Shown: in pieces, positions 1,586 to 16,778 of the stretch
Layout of the letters: each line of letters begins with the position of its first letter
Position numbering within the stretch: the first letter of the stretch is position 1
Assembly (NCBI RefSeq): GCF_013315695.1
Contig: NZ_CP054353.1
Length of the DNA: 64,000 bases
Strand: one strand, 5' to 3'
Source: Escherichia coli
GTDB taxonomy: Bacteria > Pseudomonadota > Gammaproteobacteria > Enterobacterales > Enterobacteriaceae
The notes under the pieces: generated by a model
Database searches by the model: none
Seen by the model: the letters and a program-made list of their open reading frames with translations, nothing else
What the model was told of the DNA's origin: nothing
Made by a program: the position numbers and the translations under genes

Positions 1586-1612
1586 AAAAAACCTGCTCCG
1601 GCAGGTTTTTTT
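1586..1612 (+). terminator. rho-independent terminator of azuC
   Basis: Stem acctgc / gcaggt (1591-1606) followed by T7 run. Confidence 0.7.
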
Positions 1613-11540: not shown

Positions 11541-11822
11541 GTGCTTATCTTATTAGGTTACCTGGTTGTTCTCGGTACAGTTTTCGGCGGTTATTTGATG
11601 ACCGGTGGAAGCCTTGGAGCACTCTATCAACCCGCTGAACTGGTGATTATTGCCGGTGCAGGGATTGGGTCGTTTATCGTCGGCAATAATGGCAAAGCGA
11701 TTAAAGGCACGCTGAAGGCGCTGCCGTTGCTGTTTCGTCGCTCCAAATACACCAAAGCAATGTATATGGATCTGCTGGCTCTGCTTTATCGGTTGATGGC
11801 GAAATCGCGGCAGATGGGGTAA
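11541..11822 (+). pseudogene. motA: motA 5' fragment (codons 1-93), interrupted by IS4
   Basis: GTG start, MLILLGYLVVLGTVFGGYLMTGG...AKSRQMG, then stop TAA formed by the first bases of IS4. Confidence 0.9.
11808..11819 (+). repeat. IS4 target-site duplication, left copy (cggcagatgggg)
   Basis: Identical 12-mer at 13246-13257 directly flanks the other IS4 end. Confidence 0.9.
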
Positions 11823-13245
11823 TGCCAGTCAGTTAAGCAACTGACTGGCTCTTTTTCGGGGCTGTGGGGTATTTCCAGGGCCTCTCCTTTACCACTCTCG
11901 GGAAGGCCCTTTCCCTTCTTGTCGGTAATTTCACAAGTTGTCCCATACTTGCAAGATCGCGCATCAGCTCCGGTATACGTCCCGGTGAAGCGCCCTGCAA
12001 TGTCATCAGCATTCTCATCACCATTCCGCATGATTCTGAGAAACTCAGTTGATTCGGCCAGTAACCTTTCAGATGTTCCGCCATTTTAATCATCTGATAT
12101 CTCACCAGATTATAAGCCAGTAAGACACCCCACAGCTCTTGCTCCACAAGCTCCGGTTTTTTACTTCTCAGCGTCAGCCTGCTCAGTTGCATCGTCTGTT
12201 TTATCTCCCTGTATCCCAGTTCGATTTCCCAGCGATGACTGTACAGATCCGCCATTTCTCCTCCGGGGAAGCGCATGGCGTCCGTCATCGACGTCAGCAG
12301 ATGGCAGACTTTTCCTTTGCGCGTCACGGTCAGCAGGCGGGCTGTCACTTCATTTCCCAGTCCCGGCCACTTTTTTCGTGCCTGCGGGCTGGTTTTCAGC
12401 TTCACCAGATGATCGCCTTTACCCAGTTTTCTGATCTCTTCATATTGCGCTCCCTTTCTGAGAGGTATCATCCAGTGGCGGTGTTCTCCCGCCAGGCTCC
12501 AGGCATTTAACAGTCCCAGTGAGTAATAACCTTTATCCATTAACGTCAGAGTGTTATCGCCGGTTTGTTCTATAAGTTGCTCAGCAAGCTCATTTTCGCT
12601 GTTCTTCATCGTGCCGAAGGCTGCAGCCGTCAGCAGATGGCTGGTCAGTTCCATCTGGCAGACCATTTTGACCTGCGGGTAGAGCGCCGGGTTCCCGGCA
12701 TGTGTCTGGCGGGGGAAGGCTGCATCGTTCTCTGGTGTATCCGGTGTGCGCCAGAACACACCATCGATGGCCAGCAGGGTCAGGCCGCACCAGTGCGGAT
12801 GCGGCGTGGCGTTATGCCAGAGCTGCGCTGTTTTCGTGAACACGCGGCGGACAGCCTCACTTCCCAGGCGCTGGCGGGCCTGAATAACGGCACTGGGGGC
12901 AACGAAGGGGCGATTGCCCGGCAGCATGATGTCCAGGCGATTCACAATCTGGTGAAGAGGTTCTTTACGCTCAAGCGCCATGCCAACAATACACCAGACC
13001 ATCATTTCGAGGGGAAGACGGCGCTTGCGTAGCGTTACAGTACCTGATTCGGCAAGGCAACGAGAGATGAGTTCGGGGTCGAGGTAATCCCCCAGAGAAG
13101 TCAGTGGGTTACGCAGAGAATCGTAACGGGATACCAGATCAAGAGCCTGTCCAATGTGCATAAAAAAATCCGGAAACAAGTGAGCGTTTCCGGATTCTTA
13201 CACAGCCACTGGATCGGTCAACTGATCCTTAACTGATCGGCATTA
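11820..13245 (-). mobile_element. insertion sequence IS4, complete, 1426 bp
   Basis: Imperfect terminal inverted repeats (left taatgccagtcagttaag, right-end reverse complement taatgccgatcagttaag, 16/18 match); one 442-aa transposase ORF; length equals the canonical IS4 size; flanked by 12-bp direct repeats. Confidence 0.92.
11833..13161 (-). CDS. insG: IS4 transposase InsG (DDE family)
   Basis: 442 aa from ATG 13161 ([48 protein letters not shown]...); track ORF starts at an upstream TTG (13179). Confidence 0.9.
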
Positions 13246-13257
13246 CGGCAGATGGGG
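13246..13257 (+). repeat. IS4 target-site duplication, right copy (cggcagatgggg)
   Basis: Identical to 11808-11819. Confidence 0.9.
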
Positions 13258-13862
13258 ATGTTTTCGCTGGAACGCGATATTGAAAATCCCCGTGAGAGTG
13301 AGATCTTCGCCAGCTACCCACGCATCCTTGCGGATAGCGTCATGCTTGAATTTATCGTCGATTATCTGCGCCTGATTATCAGTGGTCACATGAACACCTT
13401 CGAAATCGAAGCTCTGATGGATGAAGAGATTGAGACGCACGAAAGCGAGGCAGAAGTCCCGGCGAACAGTCTGGCGCTGGTCGGGGACTCACTTCCGGCG
13501 TTTGGTATTGTTGCGGCTGTAATGGGGGTCGTTCACGCGTTAGGTTCAGCCGATCGTCCTGCCGCCGAGCTGGGGGCGCTTATCGCTCATGCGATGGTGG
13601 GGACTTTCCTCGGTATTTTATTGGCTTACGGATTTATTTCCCCATTAGCGAGTGTTTTACGTCAGAAAAGCGCCGAAACCAGCAAAATGATGCAGTGCGT
13701 CAAAGTCACTCTGCTTTCAAATCTGAACGGTTACGCACCGCCTATCGCCGTTGAGTTTGGTCGCAAAACGCTCTATTCCAGCGAACGTCCGTCGTTTATT
13801 GAGCTGGAAGAGCATGTGCGTGCGGTGAAAAATCCGCAACAACAGACGACAACCGAGGAAGC

Positions 13863-13866
<4 letters not shown>
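13246..13866 (+). pseudogene. motA: motA 3' fragment (codons 90-295)
   Basis: In-frame continuation RQMGMFSLERDIENPRESEIF...QQQTTTEEA; stop overlaps the motB ATG. Confidence 0.9.
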
Positions 13867-16758
<2,892 letters not shown>

Positions 16759-16778
16759 ATGAGTAAAAAGGTAACAAT

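Follow-up and report, generated by a model that had tools for sequence, protein, structure and literature searches.

A complete IS4 element interrupts motA of Escherichia coli at a position apparently struck by IS4 on several occasions

The motA locus

The 64-kb stretch of Escherichia coli DNA analysed here, referred to below as the window, carries an intact flhDC master operon followed by motA, motB, cheA and cheW, and this gene order is the same as in the annotated loci of E. coli strains MSB1_4I and SK1144. A complete copy of the insertion sequence IS4 (11820-13245, 1426 bp), the only copy in the window, interrupts motA, which opens the motA-motB-cheA-cheW operon; the transposase gene of the element is on the minus strand and antiparallel to motA. 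The features of the locus are as follows.

11541-11822, plus strand: motA 5' fragment, with a GTG start, codons 1-93 and a TAA consisting of the first three bases of IS4; 93-aa product
11808-11819: left copy of the target-site duplication, CGGCAGATGGGG, which occurs once in the MSB1_4I empty site
11820-11837: IRR, the IS4 end distal to the transposase start, TAATGCCAGTCAGTTAAG, matching the other end at 16 of 18 positions
11824-11849, plus strand: terminator-like hairpin in the IS4 end facing the motA promoter, an 11-bp stem followed by TCTTTTT (-19.9 kcal/mol, z = -2.9)
11833-13161, minus strand: IS4 transposase coding sequence, 442 aa plus stop (ATG at 13161, stop at 11833), the sole long open reading frame of the element
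13167-13196, minus strand: terminator-like hairpin with a U7 tract after it, adjoining the transposase ATG on its upstream side (-31.8 kcal/mol, z = -6.0)
13194-13221, minus strand: candidate transposase promoter, a sigma-70-like consensus match (TTGACC-16-AAGAAT with TG) inside the IS4 end
13228-13245: IRL, the IS4 end adjoining the transposase start, reverse complement TAATGCCGATCAGTTAAG
13246-13257: right copy of the target-site duplication, an exact 12-bp match to the left copy
13258-13866, plus strand: motA 3' fragment, codons 94-295 plus stop
13863-17282, plus strand: motB, cheA and cheW, with intact open reading frames, annotated in the syntenic MSB1_4I

Identity and anatomy of the IS4 element

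The original prediction identified the segment as IS4 from end to end, carrying a single IS4-type transposase of 442 aa on the minus strand, and considered its 1426-bp length and 12-bp duplication to be typical of that element; comparison with known copies bore out all of this. Over positions 1-1426 the element is 100% identical to copies annotated as "IS4-like element IS4 family transposase" in complete E. coli genomes, including those of strains NCTC86, CE10 and IAI39, and it aligns without gaps over 1426/1426 bp to the MG1655 feature "insertion sequence:IS4" with four mismatches (99.7% identity), two of the amino acids in its transposase differing from K-12 InsG. The K-12 copy (the insG element, 4,502,090-4,503,515 of NC_000913.3) has the same 1426-bp length, 18-bp ends, 442-aa transposase and 12-bp duplication, but it is located between yjgZ and nanX whereas the window copy interrupts motA.

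The transposase reading frame contains no frameshift, scores 304.5 bits on the NCBIfam model NF033592 transpos_IS4_1 (cut-off 115) and carries the Y-2-R-3-E-6-K motif of IS4-family DDE transposases at residues 307-321. The element begins with TAATGCC at its left edge and ends with GGCATTA at its right edge, and the 18-bp terminal inverted repeats pair at 16/18 positions. End positions 2-5 read AATG and positions 14-16 read TTA, which fits the signature -AATR--------WTW given for the ends of the IS4 subgroup, for which direct repeats of 10-13 bp are also listed (Table 1 of PMC2266710). The candidate transposase promoter is a consensus match only, two sigma-70-like matches having been found in the scanned region where 1.9 would be expected by chance.

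The insertion site and an empty-site relative

The direct repeats CGGCAGATGGGG that flank IS4 are exact and their identity ends at 12 bp on both sides. The 12-mer has just these two occurrences in the window, both strands having been searched, and the chance of a match to a specified 12-mer is 4^-12, or about 6e-8. Read in frame, the duplication corresponds to motA codons 90-93, Arg-Gln-Met-Gly (RQMG). Codon 93 (GGG) runs directly into the TAA provided by IS4, and the N-terminal product ends in ...AKSRQMG; the 279 bases of motA that precede the element are 100% identical to annotated motA of E. coli genomes. On the other side, an ATG at 13252, lying inside the right repeat, opens a reading frame for a 204-aa product, and the same product has been recorded on other contigs that start in IS4.

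When the element and one repeat were removed in silico, by joining 11541-11819 to 13258-13866, an uninterrupted motA of 295 codons (888 nt with the stop) was obtained, the TGA of which overlaps the motB ATG as ATGA. The restored MotA scores 383.5 bits on the TIGR03818 MotA1 model (cut-off 303.8) with residues 2-281 covered, while the two halves of the split protein match PF20560 MotA_N and PF01618 MotA_ExbB separately. The insertion site is thus as had been predicted, with a perfect 12-bp duplication, a frame that is read from GTG 11541 to a stop derived from IS4 after codon 93, its resumption after the right repeat as far as an overlap with the start of motB, and a continuous gene once the element and one repeat are taken out.

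A natural counterpart of the restored gene exists. E. coli strain MSB1_4I, which comes from a rectal swab in Australia and whose genome is complete, is a near-identical relative: it has one CGGCAGATGGGG, to which both flanks align, its motA annotation is that of an intact gene, and the restored motA junction equals this empty site base for base. To the left of IS4 the two sequences are identical at 11,819/11,819 bases and to the right they show four differences in 36,755 bases; judged by this sequence identity, the window strain belongs to the same E. coli clone as MSB1_4I. Because the flanks are nearly identical to those of the empty-site genome, we consider the insertion to be a very recent, strain-level event. 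The number of matching places in MSB1_4I was 25 with IS4 in the query and seven without it, which corresponds to about 18 IS4 copies; among the 5,426 complete RefSeq E. coli genomes, 2,686 gave IS4 matches, the median number of places in a matching genome being one. Given the intact reading frame and ends of the motA copy, the very recent date of its insertion relative to MSB1_4I and the approximately 18 copies in the clone, the element, which is complete, appears to be able to transpose.

Effects on MotA and on the downstream operon

MotA, as reportedly described by Zhou and Blair, consists of a pair of membrane helices at the N-terminus, a large loop in the cytoplasm and another two helices, which together with MotB make up the proton channel, and the loop residues Arg90 and Glu98 are said to contact FliG. 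IS4 breaks the protein past TM1-TM2, within the cytoplasmic loop and at a point between Arg90 and Glu98, as expected from the original prediction that the cut separates the N-terminal membrane segments from the rest of the protein. The 93-residue fragment retains TM1, TM2 and Arg90, lacks Glu98, the rest of the loop and TM3-TM4, and cannot form a stator. The further claim that a functional MotA cannot be made from this locus follows from the identity of the element and the split reading frame, both established above.

The consequences probably extend beyond motA. The terminator-like hairpin at 11824-11849 lies just inside the IS4 end that transcripts from the motA promoter would meet first, and a promoter consensus scan found no outward-facing match on the plus strand. 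In view of these hairpins and of the known operon structure, the insertion is probably polar on motB, cheA and cheW, and since hairpins are present at both ends of the element, either orientation should halt incoming transcription. The strain would then probably make little MotB, CheA and CheW, in addition to making no stator from the motA locus, and a non-motile or paralysed phenotype is expected. Automatic annotation of such a locus is expected to yield two "partial MotA" fragments.

The best account of the whole locus, which we hold to be almost certainly correct, is that an intact IS4 transposed into the motA gene of a strain from an E. coli clone with about 18 copies of the element. Transposition would have proceeded by cut-and-paste, with the transposase making cuts staggered by 12 bp at motA codons 90-93, and repair of the gaps would have left CGGCAGATGGGG duplicated on either side of IS4. 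Translation of motA stops at the TAA of the IS4 end, producing the 93-residue fragment and no stator, and the hairpin just inside that end would probably stop transcripts from the motA promoter and lower expression of motB, cheA and cheW. The choice of site is non-random, the motA position fitting the pseudo-palindromic target preference of IS4. No evidence contradicting this core reading was found.

Other lesions in the clone

Lesions other than motA::IS4 were surveyed within the window, which places the fli and flg regions outside the survey. The clone carries a nonsense mutation in flhB, W345* (TGG to TGA, 23591-23593), that is present both in the window and in MSB1_4I, where the PGAP annotation of flhB is that of a pseudogene containing an internal stop. 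FlhB thereby lacks 38 of its 382 residues, namely the C-terminal proline-rich tail. Moreover, of tap the window retains just a short remnant, located between tar and cheR, as in strains SK1144 and B1172. A 167-aa open reading frame at 2028-2531, entertained as a possible IS1, proved to be ftnB.

Since flhB W345* is also present, motA::IS4 need not be the sole motility lesion, and the insertion could have been a neutral passenger in a strain that had earlier suffered loss or impairment of flagellar function. The occurrence of W345* in the empty-site genome, and the tap remnant, are consistent with this. Nevertheless, removal of the FlhB tail has been described as lowering flagellation and loosening hook-length control and not as giving a null phenotype, and Salmonella FlhB proteins truncated to residues 1-355, 1-360 or 1-365 still assemble (PMC7771051), while the tap deletion is common to many strains that otherwise look intact. 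We therefore regard a passenger role as possible but rather unlikely, and motA::IS4 may be either the decisive motility lesion or a secondary one.

Target preference of IS4

Older work reportedly described IS4 as always inserting at one site in galT, and an AAA...TTT consensus, AAAN20TTT, is also reported to have been given for its targets. The classical insertions, in galT and in the pheST attenuator, likewise exhibit a strong pseudo-palindromic preference, duplications of 11-13 bp and polar mutations. The target pattern used here was derived from sites that we collected and not from that consensus. In 14 other IS4 copies surveyed the target duplications measured 11-13 bp, and a single mismatch was present in one of these duplications. 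The training set comprised 13 other IS4 sites from complete genomes and plasmids, with motA excluded, and included insertions in nimR, a sulfatase gene, php, hyfE, a DUF1175 gene and ygeA, between pdxK and crr and between ycaL and aroA, and upstream of adhE; the elements at these sites are 1425-1426 bp long and their duplications 11-13 bp.

The reconstructed targets share a common pseudo-palindrome, exemplified by ataAAAAAtggCGCCGATGGGCGccaTTTTTc. On pooling the half-sites, A was found at positions -6 and -5 in 24/26, while C occupied position 1 of the duplication in 22/26 and position 4 in 21/26. The pattern can be summarised as a run of A, a gap of about 3-4 bp, a duplication of 11-13 bp with a C-rich start and a G-rich end, a second gap of about 3-4 bp and a run of T. 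The A-run and T-run arms fit the arm specificity of the IS4 subgroup, which has been called "spectacular" (PMC2266710).

These sites were converted into a weight matrix, and scoring the restored window with it for duplication lengths of 11, 12 and 13 gave 187,560 candidates. The motA site, with its observed boundaries and length, ranked second among the 187,560 with a score of 19.5 (background mean -19.2, sd 7.9), a result that should be read in the light of a matrix trained on only 13 sites. An unplanned validation of the matrix was provided by the candidate ranked seventh, in the intergenic region between lpxM and pykA at about 48678 of the window: in E. coli B1172 this region is occupied by an IS4 flanked by exactly the predicted 13-bp duplication, CTCTCGCGAGGAG. 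For the IS4 site of strain FDAARGOS_1249, between yecR and azuC, no counterpart could be mapped in the window at four or fewer mismatches.

Recurrence at motA codons 90-93

A search of 5,426 complete RefSeq E. coli genomes for motA::IS4 in either orientation yielded none, and the possibility that copies in the opposite orientation were hidden among the complete genomes was discarded after a synthetic flipped allele, used as query, also found none. The allele is therefore rare, and any hot spot is one of recurrence and not of prevalence. Public contigs provided a different view. The exact 93-aa MotA product occurs on 84 public contigs, and the NCBI records among them are all from E. coli and are named partial MotA. 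A Shigella source of the window, considered because the allele is missing from the complete E. coli genomes, was rejected in view of these records and of the flank identity with MSB1_4I.

The allele is marked by four junction k-mers, AAATCGCGGCAGATGGGGTAATGCCAG or AAATCGCGGCAGATGGGGTAATGCCGA for the left and CTGACTGGCATTACGGCAGATGGGGATG or TGATCGGCATTACGGCAGATGGGGATG for the right. Nine left-junction contigs retrieved from ENA, NCBI and Logan cover flhDC and motA and pass into IS4 at one and the same base; six of the nine have the orientation of the window (TAATGCCAGTCAG...) and three the opposite one (TAATGCCGATCAG...). The same 93-aa product results in both orientations because both IS4 ends begin with TAATGCC. 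Right-junction contigs start in IS4 and continue into motA from codon 90 onward, again in both orientations and with the same 12-bp repeat, and left and right junctions were recovered from one sample in two cases, SRR12764073 (opposite orientation) and ERZ27307367 (same orientation). The nine left flanks are all distinct, differing pairwise by 21-168 SNPs over 6.28 kb. A G/A SNP located 9 bp from the repeat was found in both states with both orientations, giving four allele-by-orientation combinations and hence at least four events, which is a very conservative count.

Several apparent further cases were set aside. A 95-aa MotA product on 172 contigs, which resembled an IS4 insertion shifted by 6 bp, was in reality due to an S96* nonsense mutation (TCG to TAG), present on three haplotypes, or to the contig end. 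Two sequences in which motA appeared split into products of 107 aa and 204 aa without IS4 were artefacts of scaffolding across N gaps, and one candidate junction contig was uninformative, ending one base past the repeat with the wild-type base.

Comparison of these contigs gives good support to the conclusion that other E. coli lineages have been struck by IS4 at the same motA position in repeated, independent events, and the position would be recurrently struck because it fits the target preference of the element. A more far-reaching proposal is that codons 90-93 constitute a species-wide, sequence-directed IS4 hot spot offering lineages in which IS4 is active a recurrent and predictable route to non-motility, perhaps selected in the gut and perhaps reversible by precise excision between the repeats; taken as a whole this seems to us unlikely, and the biological significance of the recurrence beyond target preference is the unproven part. 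Still less probable is a hot spot maintained as a selected, possibly reversible switch to paralysed flagella that is favoured in the host, with precise excision restoring motility. The recurrence of independent insertions at one site is compatible with such a switch, as are other recurrent inactivations of motA such as S96*. Against it, the absence of the allele from the complete genomes indicates that it has not risen to high frequency, target preference suffices by itself to explain the recurrence, and no evidence of excision was seen; moreover, a mot mutant still makes flagella and would save little of the cost of flagellin and gain no escape from immune detection.

The identical junction and 12-bp repeat in all carriers might instead reflect one ancestral insertion, spread by descent or by homologous recombination, for which E. 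coli is known. The contig closest to the window differs from it by three SNPs in 6.4 kb, and these two sequences may indeed carry the same event. For the carriers as a group, however, a single origin is very improbable: one event cannot yield both orientations, both alleles of the SNP next to the repeat occur with each of them, the flanks diverge by up to 168 SNPs, those of the window are matched by an empty-site genome, and an independent target model selects the exact motA site. That the assembly has merely misplaced one copy of a repeat that is present some 18 times in the clone, assemblies being prone to err at repeats, can practically be dismissed, since a misplaced repeat would not produce a perfect 12-bp duplication at the site favoured by the target model, and contigs assembled independently from short reads of other samples enter IS4 at the identical base at either junction. 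Recurrent, independent insertion directed by target sequence is thus the reading that we retain.

Relation to known systems and significance

Inactivation of genes by insertion sequences, with target duplication and polarity, is textbook knowledge, and the present case is a routine gene knockout by a known element and is already known in kind. It reveals no new type of element or mechanism. In the flagellar regulon, IS1 and IS5 are found upstream of flhDC in E. coli, and insertion sequences and deletions occur in the flagellar operons of Shigella. The window resembles these instances of flagellar decay in that a mobile element in the flhDC-motAB-che region alters motility; it differs from them in that flhDC is intact and the stator gene is struck, and in that the event is at the level of the strain and does not define a lineage. 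Unlike in the Shigella cases, the element has struck an ordinary clone of E. coli.

No paper linking IS4 with motA in E. coli was found in the searchable literature, and the recurrent use of motA codons 90-93 by IS4 may not have been described so far, although the recurrence itself is the expected outcome of a known property of the element. What the locus offers is a fully resolved case of the strong target preference of IS4: a sister genome shows the empty site, unrelated lineages carry the insertion in both orientations, and the target model predicts real insertion sites. Such a model could help to predict which genes are at risk in clones rich in IS4, and the case could assist the interpretation of draft assemblies in which contigs break or motA is called as truncated.

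Additional lesions in the motility and chemotaxis genes

Two further genes of this region carry lesions in the window:

22559-23707, flhB, with a premature stop codon, W345* (TGG to TGA), at 23591-23593
about 19134-19285, remnant of tap, about 150 bp, between tar (ending at 19088) and cheR (starting at 19379)

The nonsense codon in flhB removes the C-terminal 38 residues, which constitute the proline-rich tail, and it is common to the window and the near-identical complete genome MSB1_4I, where flhB is classified as a pseudogene by PGAP; codon 345 is TGG in the E. coli strains SK1144 and B1172. The chemoreceptor gene tap has been deleted except for this remnant, which is also present in SK1144, MSB1_4I and B1172; the annotation of those three genomes lists it as a pseudogene, "Tar ligand binding domain", with a frameshift. 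Strain FDAARGOS_1249 carries an intact tap, and its cheZ is annotated with an internal stop.

Sequence variation at the motA target

A separate motA knockout, S96* (TCG to TAG), lies three codons past the IS4 site and was detected on three contigs (L037-L039, position 2768 onward), including the complete 4.99-Mb genome GCA_964040325.1, and nearby SNPs differ among the three. The corresponding 95-aa MotA product was found on 172 contigs. Several further contigs stop at most 8 bases beyond the IS4 target in motA.

The position 9 bp upstream of the motA duplication is G in the window (11799) and A in three contigs spanning the left junction of IS4 in motA (L002, L006 and L007). The A allele changes gcgAAAtcg to gcAAAAtcg and thereby lengthens the A-run of the target arm, and IS4 insertions at motA occur on both alleles.

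Other IS4 targets and the IS4 load of the clone

Targets predicted in the window with a weight matrix, and an IS4 copy located in FDAARGOS_1249, include the following:

Window 1593-1604, top-scoring predicted target, ranked first, just after azuC, ataacaaaaaacCTGCTCCGGCAGgtttttttgtgt
Window about 48678-48690, top-scoring predicted target between lpxM and pykA, occupied by IS4 in B1172
L047 (FDAARGOS_1249) 301-1726, IS4 copy between yecR and azuC, with a 13-bp duplication, CAGAAATAGGGGG

The predicted target at 1593 resembles a bidirectional terminator; a likeness to the palindromes of intergenic terminators is shared by many IS4 targets. The FDAARGOS_1249 copy is close to motA, on its upstream side at a distance of only about 10 kb.

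Genomes of the window's clone (MSB1_4I, OZ547117, MS 21-1, OZ546925 and OZ546911) carry about 12-18 IS4 copies, estimated as the matching places obtained with IS4 in the query minus those obtained without it, whereas the median for IS4-positive E. coli genomes is one matching place per genome. The clone therefore appears to have undergone a lineage-specific expansion of IS4.
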